From: Clostridia bacterium
GTDB taxonomy: Bacteria; Bacillota; Clostridia; Oscillospirales; CAG-382
Assembly: GCA_017561145.1 (NCBI GenBank)
Contig: JAFZDO010000041.1
Span: 72,576 to 136,575 of the forward strand
Direction: 5' to 3'
DNA: 64,000 nt
In this document: piece after piece, positions 41,122 through 51,574 of the stretch
Layout of the letters: every line of letters begins with the position of its first letter
Numbering within the stretch: position 1 is the first letter of the stretch
The notes under the pieces: model-generated
Told to the model about the DNA's origin: nothing
Seen by the model: the letters and a program-made list of their open reading frames with translations, nothing else
The model's database searches: none
Position numbers and translations under genes: made by a program

Positions 41122-41937
41122 TTAGTCAACAACATTTTGCTTTTCGACCATTCTTGCGATCTGGCGCTCGAAGAACATAACGTAATTTTCATAAAAATAG
41201 TTGCAATCGTTGGTCGAATTTCCGATTATCGCAATAAGCTTCAAAGCCTTTTCGACTTCTTCGATTGCCGAATCGATCTCGCCGTTTTTCTCATAGCATT
41301 CGGCAAGGTGCCACATCATTTGTATAAGGTTTTCAAACGAGACCCATTTTTGCTTTTCGGCGGCATCGAATTTTTCCTCGCCGTCGAATATATATGCTAT
41401 CTCGGTCAATCTTGTGAAATATATTTCGGGGATCTGATCGATCGCCATTTTTGCGCTTTTCATATCGCCCTTTGCCTTATATGCGTAAGCCATAAAACGC
41501 AACGCATCGTAAATAATACTGTGGTCGGTCGCCTTGTCGATAAGCTTTGTAGCAACCGCAATGGTTTCGTCGGGGTTGCCCGTGCAATCTATAACGTAAA
41601 GCAGATTGTTAAGAAGGATATCGTTTTCGGGATACTTTTTCAAGCCCGTTTCCAAAATTCTTCGGCTTTCCTCGGGGTCGCTTTGGCGGTATTTATAAGC
41701 CTCGTCGGCAATCGCCTCGACGTCGGATTCGATCTGCTTTAAATTAAAATCAAAAAGCTCGTCCATCGAAACCGAAAAATAAGCCGCAAGCTTCGGTGCA
41801 AGTGCAATATCGGGCAGAGCGATACCGTTTTCCCATTTGGAAACCGCTTGGAACGATATACCGATGCTTGCCGCAAGCTGTTCCTGAGTGATTCCACGCG
41901 CTTTTCTTAATTCCTTTATTTTACTTCCTATATTCAT
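41122..41937 (-). CDS. XRE-family HTH transcriptional regulator with TPR-like C-terminal domain
   Basis: IKELRKARGITQEQLAASIGISFQAVSKWENG HTH_XRE motif, then a helical-repeat region (AYAYKAKGDMKSAKMA). Confidence 0.8.
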   Translation of the reverse strand: MNIGSKIKELRKARGITQEQLAASIGISFQAVSKWENGIALPDIALAPKLAAYFSVSMDELFDFNLKQIESDVEAIADEAYKYRQSDPEESRRILETGLKKYPENDILLNNLLYVIDCTGNPDETIAVATKLIDKATDHSIIYDALRFMAYAYKAKGDMKSAKMAIDQIPEIYFTRLTEIAYIFDGEEKFDAAEKQKWVSFENLIQMMWHLAECYEKNGEIDSAIEEVEKALKLIAIIGNSTNDCNYFYENYVMFFERQIARMVEKQNVVD

Positions 41938-42109: not shown

Positions 42110-43015
42110 ATGGAAGCAAAGGTAAAGGCATTGATAGAAGCGATAAACAACGACAACCCCGGTGTTGAATCGGTAGCGCTTTGGAAGGACGGCGAAATGA
42201 AGCTGATTCAACGCTATGTGCCCAAGCGCTCGCGCCTTATTTATTCCCACACGAAAAGCTTTGTGTCCACCGCGGTCGGTATTGCGGTCGACGAGGGCAT
42301 TTTGTCGCTCGACACCAAGCTTTTGGACGTTTTCCCCGAATATATTGATAAGATTACCGACGAAAGGGTTAAGGAGATCGAGCTTAGGCACCTTTTAACG
42401 ATGAGCTCGGGATTCGGAAATGCGTTTCTTATGAGCTCCAACCGCCGCCGTGACGAGGGTTATCCCGATTACGTCGGTTATATGCTGCAAAAGGAAATGA
42501 AATATAACCCCGGCGAAAGGTTTGTTTATTCAAACGCCGATACTCATCTTTGCGGCTGTATGGTTCAGCGCGCAAGCGGCACTACGCTTTTGAAATATAC
42601 TCACGACAAGCTTTTTTCAAAGCTCGATATGGGCTTCCCTGCTTGGGAGACCGACCCCGACGGCGTTGCTTTCGGCGGAAGCGGTCTTTATCTCGATATA
42701 ACAGAAATGATGAAGCTTGGTATACTTTATCTTAACAAGGGCATTTTTAACGGCGAACGAGTTGTATCAAGCGAATGGGTCGAGCTTGCCTCGAGCAATC
42801 AAATACCCACCGGTCACGAAACGCTTTGGCACGGTCAATACGGATTTCAATTTTGGTTGGTAGGACAGAAAAAGGGCGCGTTCAGAGCCGACGGTATGTA
42901 CGGTCAGTTTTCCATCGTTCTGCCCGAGGACAACGCGGTTATCGCAACACAGTGCTGTGAAGAAAACGACGTCGGCAAATTTGTCGATATGATCATCGAA
43001 TACACAATGAAGTAG
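42110..43015 (+). CDS. Serine hydrolase, beta-lactamase/class C-like family (no signal peptide)
   Basis: SHTKSF (SxxK) and YSN (YxN) motifs in the correct order; 301 aa. Confidence 0.8.
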   Translation: MEAKVKALIEAINNDNPGVESVALWKDGEMKLIQRYVPKRSRLIYSHTKSFVSTAVGIAVDEGILSLDTKLLDVFPEYIDKITDERVKEIELRHLLTMSSGFGNAFLMSSNRRRDEGYPDYVGYMLQKEMKYNPGERFVYSNADTHLCGCMVQRASGTTLLKYTHDKLFSKLDMGFPAWETDPDGVAFGGSGLYLDITEMMKLGILYLNKGIFNGERVVSSEWVELASSNQIPTGHETLWHGQYGFQFWLVGQKKGAFRADGMYGQFSIVLPEDNAVIATQCCEENDVGKFVDMIIEYTMK

Positions 43016-43023
43016 GTTTTCAT

Positions 43024-44889
43024 ATGAAGCTTCTTATTATTACAAAAAAAGAAAACGACCTTTCTTTAATACTTTCCTCTTCCTGCGAAGCAAAAATTCT
43101 TGCGCCCGAAAAGGCAGAATACGAGGATATTTTATCGTTTGACGCTATGGCGATACTTGGCGGAACAGACAACAAGCCTATGATGCTTAACCCCTATCTT
43201 CGCAGTAAAGCCGAAGGCTTTGCAAAAAGCGGCAAGCCGATTTTTCTTGAATTCGTTCCTTCGTTTTCCTGTATATATTCCGCACAACCGACAAAAATCA
43301 CGTCGCACCGATTGGTTTCGGTTTGCGATTTATCAGATGAGATCAAATGCGGCGATTTGCTTGACAGTCGTCACAACGATTATATCCGTCCGCATTTTCT
43401 TATGCCCGACACAAAGGCGTTGATGTATTATCATCAATACACCCCCGCGCACGATAAATTGAACAAAGAAGGCGGCGAGCTTGTATCGAACGATATCGCG
43501 CTTTTCTCCTATGGCAACGTTCTGTTTTGCTCCTTCCGTATGTGCGATTATCTAAAAGCCGCGTTTGCGCCTGTTTCGCGTTGGAATTCGTTGGTCGAAT
43601 ATATTTGCGAATTTTTGGGTATCGAAAAGCCGAAGGAATTCGCAAAGCCCTCTTATACCGCAAAGGGCAAGCTAAACGGAGATTTCTTCGAAGAATTGAA
43701 AAAATGCACGGACAACAGTCTTGCGCTTTTAAAGAATTACCTTGTCACCCCCGACGGAAAATACGGCATCCGCGAGGGCTTGAGCCATAACATTCTCCCC
43801 GACGGAACAAGACTCGGCGCAGATTATGTCCGCACCGACTGCACGGGCGAGGCGGCAGGAGCATTTTTCTTCTCGTTTGACGATAAATTAAAGCAGATTG
43901 CCGAAAATATGTATTCGCTTTGCTACGGACCGCTTACAGTTCACGACGGCGAATACGACGGAATGGTTCGTTGGACCGAGGAAGCATGGGAGGTTTGTTA
44001 TCAGGACGACGTTGCCCGTGCGATAATCCCCTCGTTGTTGTTTGACTATTTCGGCATTTCGGACAAATACAGAAGCAACGCTCATAACGCGCTTAAATTC
44101 CTTTGCGAAACGACCTGCAAGGACGGACTACGCCCTGCACGAACCGACGTTTTGGAATTTATGAAAAGCGGCAAGCCGATACGCTCGCTTACCGAAGAGG
44201 AAAGCGGACTTGCAAGCGCACACTACAACGCATATTACAGTGCCGCACTTCTTTTGGGTTATATTACAAACGGCAACGAGGAATTTAAAGCCGTTGGCGT
44301 TCGCGGTTTGGAAACGCTTATGTCGCTTTATCCCGACACGGTGCGCGAGCATAGCGAAACAAGCGAGCTTTGCCGTCTTATCCTTCCTCTTGCGATACTT
44401 TTTAAAGCAACGGGCGAGGAAAAGCACAAGGAAATGCTTTACCGCGTGTTTAACGATCTTCAAAATTACAAGCACGCAAGCGGCGGATTTGCCGAATGGG
44501 ATACGGGATACAAGGCTTCTTGCTTTAACAACGCGGGCGGAGAATGCTCGCTTCTTGCACAAAACGGCGATAACGTTGCCGATCTGCTTTATTCATTGAA
44601 CTGGCTACCGTTGGGCTTTGCACTCGCTTGGCAGATTACGGGCGACGGTATATTCTATACCGCTTGGCAAGAGATTTGCGAATTCTTTATAAAAGCGCAG
44701 CTTGTTAGCGAAAACGAGCTTGTAAACGGCGGTTGGTGTCGAGGAATCGACCTCGATCGACTTGAATATTGCGGCATTCCGCACGACGTGGGCTGGGGTC
44801 CTTGCTGTATCGAAACCGGTTGGACGGTTTCCGAAATTACAATGGGTATGCTCGTCGGCAAAGCGCTTGCGGAAGGCAAAATTAAGTAA
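43024..44889 (+). CDS. Hypothetical 621-aa cytoplasmic protein
   Basis: Starts 8 nt after the hydrolase stop; long uninterrupted ORF with protein-like composition. The helix-rich C-terminal two thirds suggest an alpha/alpha toroid, but I recognise no family. Confidence 0.65.
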   Translation: MKLLIITKKENDLSLILSSSCEAKILAPEKAEYEDILSFDAMAILGGTDNKPMMLNPYLRSKAEGFAKSGKPIFLEFVPSFSCIYSAQPTKITSHRLVSVCDLSDEIKCGDLLDSRHNDYIRPHFLMPDTKALMYYHQYTPAHDKLNKEGGELVSNDIALFSYGNVLFCSFRMCDYLKAAFAPVSRWNSLVEYICEFLGIEKPKEFAKPSYTAKGKLNGDFFEELKKCTDNSLALLKNYLVTPDGKYGIREGLSHNILPDGTRLGADYVRTDCTGEAAGAFFFSFDDKLKQIAENMYSLCYGPLTVHDGEYDGMVRWTEEAWEVCYQDDVARAIIPSLLFDYFGISDKYRSNAHNALKFLCETTCKDGLRPARTDVLEFMKSGKPIRSLTEEESGLASAHYNAYYSAALLLGYITNGNEEFKAVGVRGLETLMSLYPDTVREHSETSELCRLILPLAILFKATGEEKHKEMLYRVFNDLQNYKHASGGFAEWDTGYKASCFNNAGGECSLLAQNGDNVADLLYSLNWLPLGFALAWQITGDGIFYTAWQEICEFFIKAQLVSENELVNGGWCRGIDLDRLEYCGIPHDVGWGPCCIETGWTVSEITMGMLVGKALAEGKIK

Positions 44890-44931: not shown

Positions 44932-46614
44932 TTATTTTTCGACTGCAAATATCATCGGTTCAGGGTTTTGATGGACACCATCGTAATCATTATCGTAATC
45001 TCCATCGTATAAGTATCCGCGCTTCATCGCCTCGCGCACGGTTGCAAAAAGCATAGAACTAATGCAATTCCAATATTGCTTTGCCAACGGAACGCTGTCA
45101 ATATGCGGCGGGATATATGTCCGCTTATCCCTGCAAAATTCGCCAAGCGGCTTAGTAAGCTCATCTTGCATTACGGAAATTGCTCGTGCAGTAATCGCGC
45201 GAAGGTCGAAAAATTCGTTTCTTTCTATCACGGGTATATTCAAAATCGGCCTGCCGTTTTCCTCGCGCAGTATTCGGCATCTTACAAGCTGAGGAATGGC
45301 CTTGAACACCTCTGTATTAAAACCGACGGAATTTGGATCGATGTTTTCGTGGATAATATAAAACAGCTTTAAAAAGATTGCGTCGATCGACATTCCCTCG
45401 CACGAGAAGGTATAATCCGGGCAACGGTTATACGACCACGTGGGGAATCCATCCGCGCCGTACATCGCAACCAAAAACGACTTTGCTCCGTACATATTAC
45501 GGAACTCCTCCCAACGTTCGCCCGAATAAAGATGCGCCATATAGGATATATGCTCCATCGGATCAAACGGCTTGAAATCGACTCTGCCGAATGCGACCCA
45601 CTGTCCGCCGTTTGGGCGTTCAGGAAGAACCTGCTTCTCTCCAACCGCCGCCTCCAACGCACCAAAAAATCCGTAATCAAGGCAACGGAACGCAACGTAA
45701 AGCTCCATTGCTTCTCTTTGATCGGCGTTTTGGCGTTTGTAGTAGTCCTTTTCTCGTATTTCGGCAAGGACTTCTTCAACTCGTTTCCATATCAGGTCAA
45801 AGTTTTCACAAACAAATTTCTTTTGATCATCGATATAGCGTTCGTAATCCTCGACGGTTTCGATAAGAAAGTCGGAATAATACCTATTCCCGACGCGCCT
45901 CATAAGTTCGCCGTCGGATAGCTTTTTAAGTATCGGTTCGATATATGCACTCGCTATACCGATGGCATCGGAAAGTTCTTCGACGGTAAGCGGTTTTTTG
46001 TAGGCGAGCCAAAGAAGATTTTGAGCAATAAGATCATTTCTTATAAGCGAATGGGGTTCAAAGTCTCTGCCGACATTACCGCTGTTGTTAAGAATAAGCT
46101 GTATCGGCGAATAGCTTTGAGCAGAATACTTTTCCATTGATTCAATACCTTTCTTCATCTGTTCTCTGCCCGAATGCAGACGACTTTTCACCGTTCCCTC
46201 GGAAATTCCGAGCGCAAGTGCGATTTCACCGACGCTTTCCCCGTTCATATAATGCCGCACTATCACCTCGCGGTAAATGCTCGCAAGGCGCGAAATTGCC
46301 CTGCGAACCTGCTCACCTTCATCGGTCAAGCATATCTCTTCGATCTCGTCGCGCTCGTCCGCAACATCAAATCCGTCGGAAATATGGGATATTGGACGGT
46401 TATATTGCTTCCTTAACATATCGTAATACTTTCGATTAAGAACCGTTAACAGCCAAGCACGCATATCGGATATTTCGTTTCCGCGCCTAATATACGCTAA
46501 TGCCGAAAGCATCGTTTCCTGCACGATATCCTCCGCGTCATATACGTTGCCGCATTTTTTGATCGCCGCAGTAAGCAAAAAGTCTATTTCGTTTTCTAAT
46601 TTAATTTTCTGCAT
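44932..46614 (-). CDS. ECF-type sigma-70 family factor fused to a ~395-aa C-terminal extension
   Basis: Region 2 (DAEDIVQETMLSALAYI...WLLTVLNRKYYDMLRK) and region 4 (GESVGEIALALGISEGTVKSRLHSGR) lie in the first ~175 aa; the rest is unassigned. Start probably at MQKIKLE after AAAGGA; the ORF-track start 46644 remains possible. Confidence 0.8.
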   Translation of the reverse strand: MQKIKLENEIDFLLTAAIKKCGNVYDAEDIVQETMLSALAYIRRGNEISDMRAWLLTVLNRKYYDMLRKQYNRPISHISDGFDVADERDEIEEICLTDEGEQVRRAISRLASIYREVIVRHYMNGESVGEIALALGISEGTVKSRLHSGREQMKKGIESMEKYSAQSYSPIQLILNNSGNVGRDFEPHSLIRNDLIAQNLLWLAYKKPLTVEELSDAIGIASAYIEPILKKLSDGELMRRVGNRYYSDFLIETVEDYERYIDDQKKFVCENFDLIWKRVEEVLAEIREKDYYKRQNADQREAMELYVAFRCLDYGFFGALEAAVGEKQVLPERPNGGQWVAFGRVDFKPFDPMEHISYMAHLYSGERWEEFRNMYGAKSFLVAMYGADGFPTWSYNRCPDYTFSCEGMSIDAIFLKLFYIIHENIDPNSVGFNTEVFKAIPQLVRCRILREENGRPILNIPVIERNEFFDLRAITARAISVMQDELTKPLGEFCRDKRTYIPPHIDSVPLAKQYWNCISSMLFATVREAMKRGYLYDGDYDNDYDGVHQNPEPMIFAVEK

Positions 46615-46682
46615 CACAGGCATCCTTTTTGTGAAAGCTTTCATCTACAAGGTCGCGCAGACAAACAAAAGGTTCAGTAGTT

Positions 46683-47117
46683 TCAAAACATTTTTTTATA
46701 ATTCTTTTGCATCTTATCACTTGTGAATCCGCATTTTTCATAAAAGCTGTGTGCGATCACTCTGCTTTCTCCCGAAACAAGCCGTATTCCGCAAGCATCG
46801 GTAGATTTTGCCCAATTTTCAACTCTCGCCATCAACGCACTGCCGATACCATTACCGCAATATTCCGAAAAAACTGCCAATGCCAATATGTTTTTCATTG
46901 ATGGTAAAAACAGCAAGTCATAATCGCACGCGTGTATATATCCGACAACCTTTTCGCCGCAAATCGCAACGTATATTCTATCGGTTCCCCGAGACAACGC
47001 CGCACGTAATTTGATGGCAGTTTCTTCAGGAGAATATTCATATCCCATTTCGATCGCATTAAGCTCCGATAATGCTTCGGCATCGGCAATAATCGCTTCG
47101 CGTATAGTAAATTCCAT
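46683..47117 (-). CDS. GNAT family N-acetyltransferase
   Basis: 144 aa. CGNGIGSALMARVENWA matches the acetyl-CoA binding motif A (Q/RxxGxG/A). Confidence 0.85.
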   Translation of the reverse strand: MEFTIREAIIADAEALSELNAIEMGYEYSPEETAIKLRAALSRGTDRIYVAICGEKVVGYIHACDYDLLFLPSMKNILALAVFSEYCGNGIGSALMARVENWAKSTDACGIRLVSGESRVIAHSFYEKCGFTSDKMQKNYKKMF

Positions 47118-47182: not shown

Positions 47183-48235
47183 TTACTTATTGTAATATTT
47201 ATCCATAACGTCCAAAACCTTAAGCATTGTTTCGGGCGCGCCTGCGTAATATGCGGTGGGACGGCTTCCGACAAATTCGCCAAAGCCCTTTTCGTAAGCG
47301 TAATAGCGCGGAGGATATGCCTCGTTTGTGAAGAATTGGTGGTCGATCTCCATTTCAAAGCCGATTTCGGTGTTCGAGGTCTTGACTCCTCCGATAATAT
47401 CGCCGTTGATGTCAACGACCGCCTGCTTTCTCACGCAATCCGAAACGATTCTTATTTCGTCAACACGCGCGGGGTTGAAGAAGAACGAGGGTTGGATTAT
47501 CGCTGTGTCGAAAATATCGGTGAGGTTTACGATGTGGCCCATATTCTTCGAGGAGGAAGCCGCCTCGTGATAATAGGGTATCCAAAGCATATTCTTACCG
47601 AACGAGCGAACACGGTCGGAAACGGTACGCATAGCGTAAACTATCGGGTTGTTAAAGTTTTCATCGGGCTTATCGTTATCAAAGCGTGTATATCCTGCGG
47701 TAACAACGTCCTCGCCCGAGAAGTAGATGCCCTGAACGTTGTTGTTCCAAATATCCTCGCGCACGGTGTTCTTTATAAGGTCAACCGTATCTGCCCAAGG
47801 CGAAGCGAAAAGATGCGTAAGCGCGTGCCAGCACTCGCACATAGGAACCGAAAACCAAATTTTCACGTCCTTTTTGATAGCAACCAATCTTTCGGCATAG
47901 GCATTGGCATCATCAACGTAATCCTTAACGTGGTAATTGCCCTTAAGGATCTTGTCGGCAGTCGCGTGGTATTCCTTTTTAATGGTTTCCAAACGATTGG
48001 GGTCGCCGACCATATCGGGAGTCATCGAATCGATAATTTCACGGGTGACAACCTCGATCTCGTTACCGTTGCGGTCGGTAAAGCGGTTAAAAACGATAAT
48101 GGGAATAAGGAGTATTTCGTCGGTAACCGCAAGGAGGCGAGAAAGCTCCTCGTCGGTGGGATTGTAATATTTGGTGTTGCTGTAGCTGTTGTAGCTCGTG
48201 TAAAGCAAAACGCCTTTTTTCATCAAAGTGCTCAT
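47183..48235 (-). CDS. Hypothetical protein, possibly DUF4855-like (glycoside-hydrolase-like fold)
   Basis: 350 aa, AAGGAG upstream, protein-like composition (WIPYYHEA, GIYFSGED). Family name is from memory only. The 377-aa plus-strand ORF over it is a codon-aligned shadow. Confidence 0.6.
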   Translation of the reverse strand: MSTLMKKGVLLYTSYNSYSNTKYYNPTDEELSRLLAVTDEILLIPIIVFNRFTDRNGNEIEVVTREIIDSMTPDMVGDPNRLETIKKEYHATADKILKGNYHVKDYVDDANAYAERLVAIKKDVKIWFSVPMCECWHALTHLFASPWADTVDLIKNTVREDIWNNNVQGIYFSGEDVVTAGYTRFDNDKPDENFNNPIVYAMRTVSDRVRSFGKNMLWIPYYHEAASSSKNMGHIVNLTDIFDTAIIQPSFFFNPARVDEIRIVSDCVRKQAVVDINGDIIGGVKTSNTEIGFEMEIDHQFFTNEAYPPRYYAYEKGFGEFVGSRPTAYYAGAPETMLKVLDVMDKYYNK

Positions 48236-48301: not shown

Positions 48302-48366
48302 AACGTTGTGGTTGCTAATTGCAAACCAATATCGACACTGCCGATTTTTACCTAAATTCTACTTTA

Positions 48367-48394
48367 ATTATACCAAACGACTGTTTTTTGTCAA
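48367..48394 (-). promoter_or_regulatory. Promoter of the DUF4855-like gene, giving a ~125-nt leader
   Basis: Minus strand: TTGACA (48394-48389), 16-nt spacer, TATAAT (48372-48367). Confidence 0.65.
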
Positions 48395-48457
48395 TACAAA
48401 TTCCCCATAAAGAAATTTTAAAAAACATCAAACCTTTTCGAGCTTTTCCCGACTATA

Positions 48458-48486
48458 TTTACAAATCCATTACATTTTCATATTAT
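48458..48486 (+). promoter_or_regulatory. Proximal promoter P2 of the lipoprotein gene
   Basis: TTTACA (48458-48463), 17-nt spacer, TATTAT (48481-48486). Confidence 0.6.
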
Positions 48487-48522
48487 AATATGAAAAATCT
48501 TTACGCAAGGAGCGATATTTTT

Positions 48523-50466
48523 ATGAAACGTTGTTTTTGTTTGCTTTTTTCTGCGCTGATACTTATTTCTTCGTTTGTTGCCTGCGGAGAAGAGCCTGAA
48601 GGCACTTCGTCTACGGAAGAACAAAGCCGATCCGAAACGAGCACAGACGCATCAAGCCAAGCAGAGCAAAGCGAAGCAACCGTAAGCTCTGCCGACGTTT
48701 CCGAAAATTCTTCGGAGTCCGAAAACAACGAGTCCTCTTTGGAAGAATCAAGCGAGCCCGAGGAATCAAGCGAGCCCGAGGAATCGAGCGAGCCCGAGGA
48801 ATCGAGCGAGCCCGAAACGAGCGAGCCGGAGGACGATACAAGCGAGGTCGCATTCCGTATTTCGAGCATCGATGACGTTACCGACGAAACGGCGACGCGT
48901 GTATATTCCGTATATGCGCCCTATACCGACACGTATACCTTAAAGGGCAAGAACGTTAAAAGCATCGTTCTTGAGCAAAACGGCAACAGAATAAAAAAAG
49001 GCAGTGACGAGATATCGGTTTCGCTTAAAGCAAACGAGATCTACACGCTTACCGTCACCACAAAAGAACAAAACAGCGATTTTAAAATAACCACCACGGC
49101 AGAAAATCACGTCGTAACCCTTCCCTATGACGTTGCATCTCCTGCAGACACCTCGGGATTCGACGTCAACGGAAATTCCCCTCTCGTTCCCTCAAAGGTT
49201 GATTACATCAAGCGCGAGGGCGGAACCTACGTTTATTCAAACAACCCCGAGCAATTCGGTTCACAGCACGTCGGCAAGGCATTTATGCGTAACGAGGGAC
49301 TTACGGGCGAGGTATACGTTACCTTTGAGCACGCAAACTATTCGGGAAGCGACGCTTACCTTGGTTATCAGCTCAAAAACGATACCGACCACGACGTTTA
49401 TATTACAATAACCAACGTGGGCTATCAATGGATCGGAACTTGGTTCGGTCAGCTTGCTTGGTATAAGTTTTATAACACCTCGTTTGAACTCCCCGACGAT
49501 TATTTTAACGCAAACGGAAGCATTTCTTCAAAATACTCGGGGCTCGATTATGCATACGTAAAGCACACTCCGAGAATTTATCAGCCCACAACCTACCGCT
49601 TGCCTGCAGGCGAAAAGTTTTGGGTAATCGGCGGCACTACCGCAGATGCATATCGCAATATCAACGTAGACGACTCGGCAAACCGACCGGTAAACCCGAT
49701 AAGATGTGCCAACGGCAACGTAAAATTCACCGTAACCGGCGGTGAGGTCACGGGAACAATGTATTGCTATTCCAATCCCTCGCAAATAAAGGATGAACAC
49801 ACGCCTATCGGTTACGTTGCGGCAGGCTATTCACAGCAGTATTCCGGCATTGCCTACCACCACGGCGTTATCGATAATTATATGGAATGGACCTTTGGTG
49901 ACGGCGATAAATCGGGTTATCTCCCCGTTACCTACACAAGCAAATATGCCGATTCGGTACCCTCCTATGCAAAGCCCTATTCGGCATACAACAGCACCGA
50001 CCACACAGTAGCCAAATCGAACACCTGGATGACTCACCTTAATCCCCAAAACGACCACAGAGCGGTCGGAATGGATATGGTCGAATTTATATGGCACGAC
50101 CAAAACGGCAAAGAGATCGTTATCGATAACCACCACGCCGACGGCGGCGGAGCGCCCGCAAACACCGCCAACTGGATGATCGAATACCAAGACCATTTCA
50201 CATTCGTCAACCAAGGCGATAAGGAGCGCACCGTCACCCTGCATCTTCGCGACCACGGCACGCTTGCTCTTTTGGTACGCGACAGTAAAACCGGCGAGGT
50301 TTTGGAAGCATCCTACACCGCAGGACTCGGTGAAAACGGAAACGTATTTTCGAACTACACCTACACCCTAACCATACCTCCGCACAGCATCGAGCAAATT
50401 ACGCTCGATTATCTGCTCGTCGCCTGTTCCTACGGCAGCGTTATGCACGCAGTACAGCTTAAATAA
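48523..50466 (+). CDS. Large lipoprotein of unknown function with an acidic repeat stalk
   Basis: AGGAG RBS, signal plus lipobox (LISSFVAC), S/E-rich stalk, then a ~520-aa Tyr/Asn/Thr-rich region of beta-rich appearance. The ORF-track TTG start at 48319 is rejected. Confidence 0.7.
   Translation: MKRCFCLLFSALILISSFVACGEEPEGTSSTEEQSRSETSTDASSQAEQSEATVSSADVSENSSESENNESSLEESSEPEESSEPEESSEPEESSEPETSEPEDDTSEVAFRISSIDDVTDETATRVYSVYAPYTDTYTLKGKNVKSIVLEQNGNRIKKGSDEISVSLKANEIYTLTVTTKEQNSDFKITTTAENHVVTLPYDVASPADTSGFDVNGNSPLVPSKVDYIKREGGTYVYSNNPEQFGSQHVGKAFMRNEGLTGEVYVTFEHANYSGSDAYLGYQLKNDTDHDVYITITNVGYQWIGTWFGQLAWYKFYNTSFELPDDYFNANGSISSKYSGLDYAYVKHTPRIYQPTTYRLPAGEKFWVIGGTTADAYRNINVDDSANRPVNPIRCANGNVKFTVTGGEVTGTMYCYSNPSQIKDEHTPIGYVAAGYSQQYSGIAYHHGVIDNYMEWTFGDGDKSGYLPVTYTSKYADSVPSYAKPYSAYNSTDHTVAKSNTWMTHLNPQNDHRAVGMDMVEFIWHDQNGKEIVIDNHHADGGGAPANTANWMIEYQDHFTFVNQGDKERTVTLHLRDHGTLALLVRDSKTGEVLEASYTAGLGENGNVFSNYTYTLTIPPHSIEQITLDYLLVACSYGSVMHAVQLK
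48745..48831 (+). repeat. 18-bp in-frame tandem repeat (4 full copies plus a partial) encoding (ESSEPE)n
   Basis: gaatcaagcgagcccgag at 48745 and 48763; gaatcgagcgagcccgag at 48781; gaatcgagcgagcccgaa at 48799. Confidence 0.9.
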
Positions 50467-50512: not shown

Positions 50513-51574
50513 TTAATATACAGCAATTTCCTCGAGTTTTTCTTTGATTGCTTTCATTCGAGCGTCGTTTGTGAATTCCGAATAAAATTCGCTGTTGAGC
50601 TCCCTTAAAAACAATGCGGATTGGTTCTCTTCATGGTTCTTTGTTGTGCTCGCAACGCGAATCTCAATACGGTTTACCATAAACGAGGTGTGCTTTCCAT
50701 CTTTTCTCAAATCGAATTTTATGCTATGCTCTGCGGCATTTTCAAGAGCGTCAAGCATTTTATCGATTTGATTAAGTGACTTGTAGCTTTTCGCAAGCGC
50801 CCGGTACACATGTTCGACTTCCCAATGATAAAATTCAAGATCGCCGTCTTCATATAAAAGTTCGAAGCTGTTAAGTATGAATTGATAGGCTTTTATTGCC
50901 CCTTCGGTTGACAAGTGATTTGCCATTCTTGTTCCGTTGCGCCATATCATTTCAAAAAGCTGCTGAATGTTATGCTGACAGTATTCAACCGCTTCTTCAC
51001 CGCTAAGCAAAGTCGGCATTAGCTCGTTAACTGTTACCGAATAACCATATGACATATTCGCGTATTCCTTCGCCTTGTCGATATCGCCCTTTGCTCTATA
51101 TGCAAAAGCAAGACATTGAATTGCACCGCTTCGACGGTTGTTATCGGTCGATTCATTAAGCAGGCGCTCGCCCAGCGAAATGATCTCATCCGCGTATGCT
51201 TTTTTATTTTCCGACAGCAAAGCATACATCAAAAAATACCACACACGGTGATCGTTCGGAAATTCCTTTTGCGCCTCGCGCCAAAGCTCGACCATCTCTT
51301 TGGTTTTTCCCTCGTGCGCAAGAATATCTTCTTTGTCAAGATATTCATCGATTTTCCTTTCCTTTTCGATCTCGTCTACACCCAAAAGCGTATCAATGCT
51401 TATATTAAAAAACGAAGCGATTGACGGTAAAAGCGAAATATCGGGCAACCCTTCAGCCCTTTCCCATTTTGAAACAGCCTGAACGGTAATGCCCAAATGA
51501 TTTGCAAGCTCCTCCTGCGTAACGTTCTTTTCCTTGCGTAAAGCTTTTAGTTGTTTATCTAACGTTATGTCCAT
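50513..51574 (-). CDS. XRE-family HTH transcriptional regulator with TPR-like C-terminal domain (paralogue of 41122-41937)
   Basis: LKALRKEKNVTQEELANHLGITVQAVSKWERAEGLPD HTH; shares AFAYRAKGDIDKAKEY with the paralogue's AYAYKAKGDMKSAKMA. Confidence 0.8.
   Translation of the reverse strand: MDITLDKQLKALRKEKNVTQEELANHLGITVQAVSKWERAEGLPDISLLPSIASFFNISIDTLLGVDEIEKERKIDEYLDKEDILAHEGKTKEMVELWREAQKEFPNDHRVWYFLMYALLSENKKAYADEIISLGERLLNESTDNNRRSGAIQCLAFAYRAKGDIDKAKEYANMSYGYSVTVNELMPTLLSGEEAVEYCQHNIQQLFEMIWRNGTRMANHLSTEGAIKAYQFILNSFELLYEDGDLEFYHWEVEHVYRALAKSYKSLNQIDKMLDALENAAEHSIKFDLRKDGKHTSFMVNRIEIRVASTTKNHEENQSALFLRELNSEFYSEFTNDARMKAIKEKLEEIAVY

Follow-up and report, generated by a model that had tools for sequence, protein, structure and literature searches.

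The window analyzed here, a stretch of 64,000 nucleotides (nt) from a Clostridia bacterium (assembly GCA_017561145.1, contig JAFZDO010000041.1, positions 72,576 to 136,575), contains a minus-strand gene at 44932–46614 that encodes the core of an extracytoplasmic function (ECF) sigma factor fused in frame to a long, soluble C-terminal module. The explanation that best accounts for the evidence is that this is a self-contained sigma/regulator gene from which both the fusion and the regulatory domain on its own are produced, and that its product is a functional, positively autoregulated ECF sigma factor from a large, uncharacterized family of gut and rumen Clostridia. Taken as a whole, this explanation is held with moderate confidence. 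The fusion, an ECF-type promoter directly upstream, a palindrome in the leader and translation initiation signals at the domain junction can be read directly from the DNA, and on this basis use of the internal start, a regulatory function for the module and a factor that reads the palindrome are proposed.

The Sigma Factor Gene and Its Corrected Start

A first-pass annotation of the window described an open reading frame (ORF) of 570 amino acids at 44932–46644 on the minus strand, in which an ECF sigma core is followed by a long soluble extension. This ORF exists, and both peptides quoted in that annotation are present in its translation. The start as originally called does not hold, as homologues start at a Met equivalent to M11 of the window ORF and a Shine-Dalgarno (SD) sequence, AAAGGA (46623–46628, minus strand), lies 8 nt 5′ of the corresponding ATG. 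The true start codon is consequently the third ATG (46614–46612), 10 codons downstream, and the real protein has 560 residues and begins MQKIKLE. The revised coding sequence (44932–46614, minus strand, stop codon included) is a single frame, and the first 10 “codons” of the longer ORF are 5′ untranslated region containing a conserved palindrome. Residue numbers below follow the 570-residue ORF.

Sigma region 2 (residues 22–80; 46405–46581, minus strand) is recognized by Pfam PF04542 (Sigma70_r2; E 5.6e-10) and matches ECF sigma structures in the PDB, while sigma region 4 (residues 111–163; 46156–46314, minus strand) is recognized by PF08281 (Sigma70_r4_2; E 1.3e-14). The two regions are separated by a linker of ~30 residues, and regions 1.1 and 3 are absent, which is the domain layout of an ECF (group 4) sigma factor. 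The NCBIfam model TIGR02937 (sigma70-ECF) scores 78.1 bits against a cutoff of 42.9, and no specific NCBIfam equivalog is above its cutoff for the window protein. Sequence matches in the PDB, with SigL, SigH, SigE and SigW among the best, are confined to residues ~20–170, as are the Pfam and NCBIfam sigma matches, in agreement with the earlier placement of regions 2 and 4 in the N-terminal part only. The maximum 19-residue Kyte-Doolittle mean is 1.37 for the window protein and at most 1.55 across the family, indicating that there is no transmembrane segment, as had also been claimed.

Family Distribution and Integrity of the Fusion

Searching with the extension alone retrieved 131 proteins, nearly all of them 545–590 residues long with the same sigma domains present. 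When 1.84 billion representative proteins were scanned exhaustively (E ≤ 1e-3, clustered at 50% identity), 451 clusters matched the extension, and the match mostly begins at residue ~165–175. Species-representative genomes were also scanned, and of the 122 loci that matched, the best 80 were taken; among these the carriers are Oscillospiraceae, Lachnospiraceae, Acutalibacteraceae and unclassified Clostridia from animal guts and the rumen, and the two named-strain matches are Paenibacillus oryzae 1DrF-4 (L036) and “Bacterium D16-50” (L082). Metagenomes hold large numbers of members of a second, ~35% identical subfamily, whose clusters reach 486 members. Among the hits inspected, named members carry only the generic annotation “RNA polymerase sigma factor”. 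Plasmid-borne copies were looked for and none were found.

The sigma core and extension form a single frame at every locus with sufficient contig, with the exception of three frameshifted copies (L048, L067 and L087) in which the sigma core and the extension lie in separate ORFs. One of these frameshifts, shared by L087 and L088, was seen in two samples of one sequencing project and so could represent a genuine allele or a pseudogene and not an error. Two candidates for natural stand-alone extension proteins were rejected, as P0121 is cut by a contig edge and P0089 results from a frameshift of 1 nt, its “start” being a TTG. All of the short forms traced are contig-edge truncations or 1-nt frameshifts, and no genuine split form was found among them; in every traceable case the extension is seen solely with an upstream sigma core, the remainder being fragments. 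The unusual length of the ORF and the split frames at the three loci could be taken to mean that two adjacent genes, for a sigma factor and an unrelated protein, were joined by sequencing or assembly error, a concern raised in the first-pass annotation. However, the same single-frame architecture occurs in hundreds of independent assemblies and the split copies arise from 1-nt frameshifts and lack a proper start codon, which makes an artefact exceedingly improbable.

The Self-Promoter

An ECF-type −35/−10 pair, which the first-pass annotation had named as a feature worth seeking upstream of the gene, is found at 76 of 79 loci in an alignment of upstream regions, mostly 54–62 nt 5′ of the start codon. 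In the window, the −35 element TGAACC (46671–46676, minus strand) and the −10 element GCGAC (46652–46656, minus strand), which is followed by CTTGTAG, form a TGAACC-N15-GCGAC promoter at 46676–46652 that is squeezed between the stop codon of a GNAT acetyltransferase gene and the sigma gene. The family consensus is (T/C)(G/A)AACC, N14-15, (G)CGAC and then YTxTAR, and AACC and CGAC are 15 nt apart in 56 loci, including the window, and 14 nt apart in 16. A position weight matrix (PWM) built from the family promoters gives the window site a score of 27.9 compared with a training median of 28.2. When 770 kb of homologous flanks were scanned at the same threshold, the sites found were almost solely the sigma genes’ own promoters. 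The gene is thus preceded by a promoter with AAC at −35 and CGA at −10 (CGT/CGA being the ECF-type −10), and the conservation of this promoter directly before its own gene, together with its near absence elsewhere, is suggestive of positive autoregulation, in which the sigma factor probably activates its own transcription.

The Leader Palindrome

Downstream of the −10 element is the palindrome TGAAAGCTTTCA (46632–46643, minus strand), which lies 12 nt after the C of CGAC, overlaps the “MKAF” codons of the 570-residue ORF and ends 3–4 nt before the first SD. By analogy with Bacillus ECF promoters, we take this to be at about +1/+2 of the transcript. A perfect inverted repeat is present at this position in 62 of 64 distinct leaders, and arms of at least 5 nt occur in 58 leaders, compared with a mean of 6.2 and a maximum of 14 after shuffling. 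There are 20 variants of the palindrome, with compensated arm changes (GAACGCGTTC, GTAAGCTTAC, GGAAGCTTCC, GAATGTACATTC) and insertions of 1–4 nt at the center. The sequence itself, beyond its symmetry, is kept in ~70% of leaders across proteins that are only 33% identical. Furthermore, 61 of the 62 copies of GAAAGCTTTC in 834 kb are within leaders of family genes (~0.9 copies expected by chance), indicating that the palindrome is a family-specific cis-element rather than the site of a global regulator.

Several other identities for the palindrome were considered and rejected or set aside. An operator for a global regulator, suggested by its cre-like appearance, is not consistent with its essential absence outside the family leaders. 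A stable RNA hairpin or known RNA family is not consistent with the negligible folding energy of the dominant form as RNA (0 to −0.6 kcal/mol), with minimum free energy (MFE) z-scores of ~0 for the leaders, or with the lack of an Rfam match in the window. A half-site that mimics the −35 element for sigma region 4 was set aside as no more than a lead, as the second subfamily has a G-to-A change at −35 for which the palindrome shows no counterpart. On the strand opposite 46632–46656, TGAAAG from the palindrome, 16 nt and CGCAAC from the reverse complement of the −10 region faintly resemble an antisense ECF promoter, a pattern that is probably a by-product of the symmetry of the palindrome.

Paralogues within one genome can have different palindromes, as seen at L078. 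Tandem paralogues at L011 (2350–3957; 536 codons) and L078 (2758–4371; 538 codons) adjoin the main copy, are highly divergent (~26% identity) and have the same sigma-extension architecture. Their promoters vary (TTAACC..CGATAC and CCAACC..CCCAC, respectively), as do their palindromes (CGAAAGCTTTCA and AAGAACGTTCTT), which suggests that orthogonal paralogue families coexist within one genome. Additionally, a 425-codon ORF at L080 (1777–3051) encodes an ECF sigma factor with a different, β-rich C-terminal extension and has the layout TGAACC-N15-CCGTC-TATATAAG followed by a palindrome (AAACCGGTTT) at the same offset as in the family. SD-like sequences also precede Met codons near the end of sigma region 4 in this gene. 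Consequently, the combination of promoter and palindrome may belong to a wider ECF clade than the extension family of the window.

An Internal Start Site at the Junction of Sigma Region 4 and the Extension

A second set of initiation signals (46135–46154, minus strand) is located where the sigma core meets the extension, and consists of an SD-like AGAAAGG (46154–46148), a 10-nt spacer and the ATG of M170 (46137–46135). The family pattern is AAGAAAGGA-N9-ATG, in which AGAAAGGA corresponds to the Firmicute SD consensus. Of 72 non-redundant genes, 71 have Met at position 170, even though this residue is located in a linker that is modeled with low confidence. The median energy of the anti-SD duplex upstream of M170 is −10.1 kcal/mol, compared with −7.1 kcal/mol at annotated start codons and −2.7 kcal/mol at 1,015 other internal ATGs, only 0.6% of which are as strong as M170. 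When codons were resampled synonymously with the codon usage of the family (300 resamples), the energy was −7.06 ± 0.26 kcal/mol versus −9.79 kcal/mol observed, and none of the 300 resamples reached the observed value. Amino acid variants at this site (KKG to REE, KEE, KKE or KRG) all retain GGAG, GAGG or AAGGA.

In all 71 genes, the 45-nt segment around the M170 ATG is less structured than any other part of the gene, with a mean MFE of −1.7 kcal/mol compared with −7.5 kcal/mol for the gene background and −3.3 kcal/mol for the primary start. It is AT-rich, with a local GC content of 0.34. In the two tandem paralogues, too, no internal ATG has a stronger SD than that of the Met at the domain boundary. 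The gene therefore contains an internal SD and in-frame start codon that show the characteristic signs of a translation initiation site, suggesting that a second, internal start probably yields the fused domain as a separate protein. As the β-strand formed by residues 182–190 belongs to the folded module, the short product would be a complete module.

Structure of the C-Terminal Extension

The extension (residues 176–570; 44935–46119, minus strand) was modeled alone with AlphaFold2 from a 74-sequence alignment, and is predicted to be one compact, soluble module (predicted local distance difference test score, pLDDT, 96.4; predicted template modeling score, pTM, 0.93). In the model, an N-terminal strand (residues 182–190) is followed by a winged helix-turn-helix (wHTH), long helices, a β-sheet subdomain, a second wHTH-like unit, a long helix and a C-terminal strand. 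Winged helix 1 (residues 205–263; 45856–46032, minus strand) is MarR/TrmB-like by both Pfam scans and Foldseek, superposes on SelB-WH, ArsR/SmtB and OhrR with a root-mean-square deviation (rmsd) of 1.4–2.6 Å over 52–66 residues and is acidic (family median isoelectric point 5.2). The winged-helix-like stretch that the first-pass annotation had noticed at the beginning of the extension is thereby confirmed structurally. The second winged-helix-like α3-β3 module (residues 420–474; 45223–45387, minus strand) is recognized from its DSSP secondary-structure pattern, and no separate fold match for it was obtained. The acidic tail mentioned in the same annotation is present; rather than a loose tail, it is a family-conserved motif (consensus LYDGxYDDDS..NQxPCPMV) that leads into the final β-strand.

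Beyond the winged helix, the extension resembles little that is known. No Pfam or NCBIfam model is above threshold in residues 176–570 of the window protein, where a wHTH signal at residues 210–255 is below threshold for both MarR (17.3 bits, cutoff 24.6) and TrmB (14.8 bits, cutoff 25.6). Across 74 members, Pfam scans find TrmB in 34 and MarR in 15, with matches below or near the thresholds, and no other family in the extension. Foldseek identified no global fold relative in the PDB or BFVD (best query-normalized TM-score 0.16), and a profile search of PDB sequences with the extension gave nothing beyond the wHTH, such that neither the MarR dimer architecture nor the TrmB effector domain is matched. 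There is no anti-sigma Pfam family in the 74 members and no anti-sigma structure among the 50 best-listed Foldseek hits. Based on the model, the extension is a MarR/TrmB-like wHTH joined to an otherwise novel α/β body.

Genomic Neighborhood

Neither a partner gene nor an adjacent regulon is evident around the sigma gene. No anti-sigma gene is visible in the 64-kb window, in line with the first-pass annotation, and clustering of neighboring ORFs across 75 non-redundant loci finds no gene family at more than 12 of them, which argues against a conserved anti-sigma partner and an adjacent regulon. Both a hidden anti-sigma gene and an adjacent regulon were rejected, as the PWM scans of the 770-kb flanks return almost only self-promoters and no partner ORF is conserved. 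The sole other PWM hit in the window, at 48426 on the plus strand (score 19.1; chance expectation ~0.07 per 64 kb), precedes a lipoprotein ORF and was rejected as a second target promoter because its −35/−10 elements are not conserved in the closest relative, L006, where a sigma70-type promoter beside the hit is conserved.

The immediate neighbors are as first described, with a GNAT acetyltransferase gene upstream (46683–47117, minus strand) and an intrinsic terminator hairpin downstream (44923–44896, minus strand), between convergent genes. Adjacency of the GNAT and sigma genes is common only to the window and L006, and a functional link between the GNAT protein and the family is therefore probably absent. 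A co-directional gene for a DUF4855 protein (47183–48235, minus strand) is located further upstream, and a perfect sigma70-type promoter, TTGACA-16-TATAAT with TG (48367–48394, minus strand), precedes the DUF4855 and GNAT genes. As no terminator is predicted between this promoter and the sigma gene, read-through could provide basal expression of the sigma gene.

Several other genes in the region were noted. The lipoprotein (MKRCFCLLFSALILISSFVACG; ORF 48319–50466, plus strand; likely start 48490 or 48523) is predicted to have ~650 residues, with an acidic Ser/Glu/Pro repeat linker (SEPEES...), a weak low-complexity match as its only Pfam match and a conserved sigma70-type promoter, TTTACA-17-TATTAT. 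Genes for regulators with HTH_3 (Xre) and TPR domains, an architecture reminiscent of Rgg/PlcR-type peptide-sensing regulators, are found on each side of the region (50513–51574 and 41122–41937, both minus strand). Convergent with the sigma gene is a gene for a 621-residue protein (43024–44889, plus strand) without a Pfam or NCBIfam match, which is preceded by a β-lactamase-family gene (42110–43015).

Proposed Mechanism and Alternatives

These features suggest a mechanism in which an ECF promoter recognized by the gene’s own product would drive an mRNA that starts at the family-specific palindrome. This single mRNA would carry two ribosome-binding sites, the first giving the fusion of sigma factor and module and the second, at the domain junction, giving the module alone. 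By analogy with ECF41 and ECF42, the fused module would serve as a built-in sensor/regulator of the sigma core and presumably takes the place of a separate anti-sigma factor, a reading already suggested in the first-pass annotation and supported here. The free module would act in trans to restrain the positive loop, whether by partnering the fusion in an anti-sigma-like way or by binding the palindrome on DNA or at the 5′ end of the mRNA beside the first SD. That the one ORF constitutes a complete sigma/antagonist circuit, with its self-promoter, two translation sites and a free module that restrains the sigma factor or binds the palindrome, is put forward tentatively, at somewhat less than an even chance.

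Some of the evidence weighs against this interpretation. The internal start is deduced from sequence signals, and the A-rich Lys/Glu linker could inflate both its SD-likeness and its lack of structure, although codon resampling controls for the amino acid sequence. Winged helix 1, an acidic domain whose recognition helix contains an invariant Glu, is atypical of a DNA binder. The full-length AlphaFold model contains no confident docking of the sigma core on the module (sigma pLDDT 58–77; pTM 0.69 compared with 0.93 for the extension alone), leaving a cis-inhibitory contact unsupported. No regulon member besides the gene itself was found by PWM scans of the window and the 770-kb flanks. Finally, the gene at L080 has a palindrome at the same offset and an unrelated extension, and the module may consequently not be the reader of the palindrome.

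The simplest alternative is that only the fusion is made, with the extension acting in cis as in ECF41 and ECF42 and the internal SD and Met reflecting a protein constraint at the end of sigma region 4 and the linker (K-K-G...M) or a co-translational pause. This is consistent with the family-wide occurrence of the fusion and the failure to find a natural stand-alone module, and Lys-rich sigma region 4 ends and hydrophilic linkers are common and naturally A/G-rich, such that the low local GC content (0.34) may reflect composition. However, the codon bias exceeds what the amino acids need (−9.79 versus −7.06 ± 0.26 kcal/mol; 0 of 300), the SD is kept where the amino acids change, the ATG is invariant within a linker of low model confidence, a mere 0.6% of other internal ATGs are equally strong and paralogues of 26% identity retain the feature; production of the fusion alone is therefore considered rather unlikely. 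It has also to be asked whether the extension is an autonomous one-component regulator, composed of a wHTH and a ligand-binding body, that uses the palindrome as its operator and is fused mainly to provide positive plus negative feedback without acting on the sigma core. Its N-terminal MarR/TrmB-type wHTH, long helices and α/β body of ~300 residues resemble such regulators, and the palindrome is exclusive to family genes, is located at ~+1, forms no stable RNA hairpin and differs between the L078 paralogues. A wHTH that is acidic (isoelectric point ~5.2) with few basic residues in the recognition helix is a poor candidate for this role, however, and a 12-bp palindrome with abutting half-sites and insertions of 1–4 bp at its center poorly fits a MarR-type dimer. 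The ECF sigma factor at L080, whose extension is unrelated, also has a palindrome there, and overall an autonomous regulator of this type is judged unlikely.

The palindrome could instead be a mere 5′-terminal stem-loop of the mRNA, without a specific reader, that protects against 5′ exonucleases or tunes the first SD. Its placement, from ~+1 to 3–4 nt before the SD, would suit this role, and covarying arms and tolerated insertions at the center point to a hairpin more than to an operator. Folding is not predicted for the dominant form (0 to −0.6 kcal/mol; leader MFE z ~0), though, and it is the sequence rather than the symmetry alone that is kept in ~70% of leaders at 33% protein identity, so that a simple stem-loop appears quite unlikely. 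A self-contained gene with two products, the fusion and the free module, is consequently retained as the preferred explanation.

Significance

Of the ways in which ECF sigma factors are controlled, fused extensions are considered the least understood. For 15 of the 26 groups with extensions, a 2022 review gives no known mechanism (PMC8999054). The family described here is large and abundant in animal gut and rumen metagenomes, and three conserved cis-features accompany its fused extension: a promoter for the gene itself, a palindrome at the transcription start that is exclusive to the family, and an internal start that is predicted from the sequence. Together, the self-promoter, palindrome and internal initiation region are suggestive of a self-contained sigma/regulator gene. 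If this is correct, the gene would represent a new regulatory layout for the ECF repertoire, and if it is indeed a sigma/antagonist circuit, a new design of ECF control would exist across hundreds of species of gut and rumen Clostridia, built on a fold without a solved relative. ECF sigma factors are reportedly already exploited in synthetic biology (PMC10880074). If confirmed, a gene of this kind would offer that field a compact, partner-free, orthogonal switch.

Comparison with Known Systems

The promoter of the window gene is of a familiar kind. In Bacillus subtilis, the promoters of sigX, sigW, sigV and sigM have an “AAC” −35 element and a “CGAC/CGTC/CGTA” −10 element and are autoregulated. 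The window family shares with these the AAC −35 element, a spacer of ~16 nt, the CGAC −10 element and the position directly upstream of the sigma gene. In contrast to the B. subtilis genes, which are co-transcribed with a membrane anti-sigma factor, the downstream “gene” is fused in frame in the window family and a palindrome follows the −10 element.

Pairs of products from in-frame internal starts are known for Tn5 transposase and its inhibitor, CheA-L/CheA-S, ClpB and IF2, in which the short product is the C-terminal part; in Tn5, the short form antagonizes the long form. The window gene is similar to these dual-start genes in having one ORF and two ribosome-binding sites, with use of the internal start being predicted. 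A limited literature search found no case of a sigma factor gene whose extension is also made separately from an internal start. With the MarR, TrmB and ArsR regulators, the module shares its first ~60 residues, which superpose at 1.4–2.6 Å and give weak Pfam matches in many members; it differs from them in its acidic wHTH and in the remaining ~310 residues, which have no counterpart.

The closest parallels are ECF sigma factors that carry extensions of their own. ECF41 and ECF42 have a core of sigma regions 2 and 4, a soluble C-terminal domain and no anti-sigma gene, and the type of extension tracks the sigma clade (PMC8999054, PMC7826278). The window family shares this “one-component” sigma logic with ECF41 (e.g., Mycobacterium tuberculosis SigJ, with a SnoaL-like domain) and ECF42 (with TPRs). 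It also has the general character of an ECF sigma factor with an extension (a conserved extension of more than 50 residues and no cognate anti-sigma gene), its own extension being 395 residues. It differs from both groups in that the extension is 2–4 times longer, has an unrelated fold and is accompanied by a different promoter. Neither the SnoaL-like (NTF2-fold) extension of ~100 residues of ECF41 nor the TPR extension of ~200 residues of ECF42 is represented, as no SnoaL, TPR or DUF6596 match was found in 74 members and the fold is instead wHTH plus α/β. Alignment of SigJ (5xe7) and SigG1 (7qh5) with the window protein is limited to the sigma core. Neither the leader palindrome nor the internal SD-ATG of the window family is described in the ECF literature examined.

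Extensions of similar size are found in other Firmicute groups. ECF264 of the Paenibacillaceae has a DUF1835 extension of ~350 residues, and thus, while the view in the first-pass annotation that the extension is longer than known ones stands against ECF41 and ECF42, length alone has a precedent. DUF1835 is also absent from the 74 members, such that the extension matches none of these described ECF extension families, and the ECF264 promoter (GTAACCTT...GGCACATT) differs from that of the window family (TGAACC...GCGAC). The window family resembles both ECF264 and ECF262 of the Clostridiales in comprising Firmicute ECF sigma factors with long extensions and no anti-sigma factor, and ECF262 members are sometimes found in tandem, as are the paralogues at L011 and L078. 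ECF262 is described as heterogeneous (POM121, L35, DUF2749 and TFIIB-Zn, with transmembrane helices in some members) and without a conserved promoter, whereas the window family is homogeneous and soluble, lacks those domains and has a conserved promoter; the two are set apart here by description only. Identity with ECF262 was not confirmed, and the description of that group argues against it. No member from R. albus surfaced among the matches to the window family.

In the portion of the ECF 2.0 tables available for comparison, where groups were compared by their descriptions, no Firmicute group combines a GAACC...CGAC promoter with a soluble extension of ~390 residues, and the signature peptides of the family are not among the sequences listed there. 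Relative to these known systems, the window family is an uncatalogued, or at least uncharacterized, ECF family with a novel extension fold.

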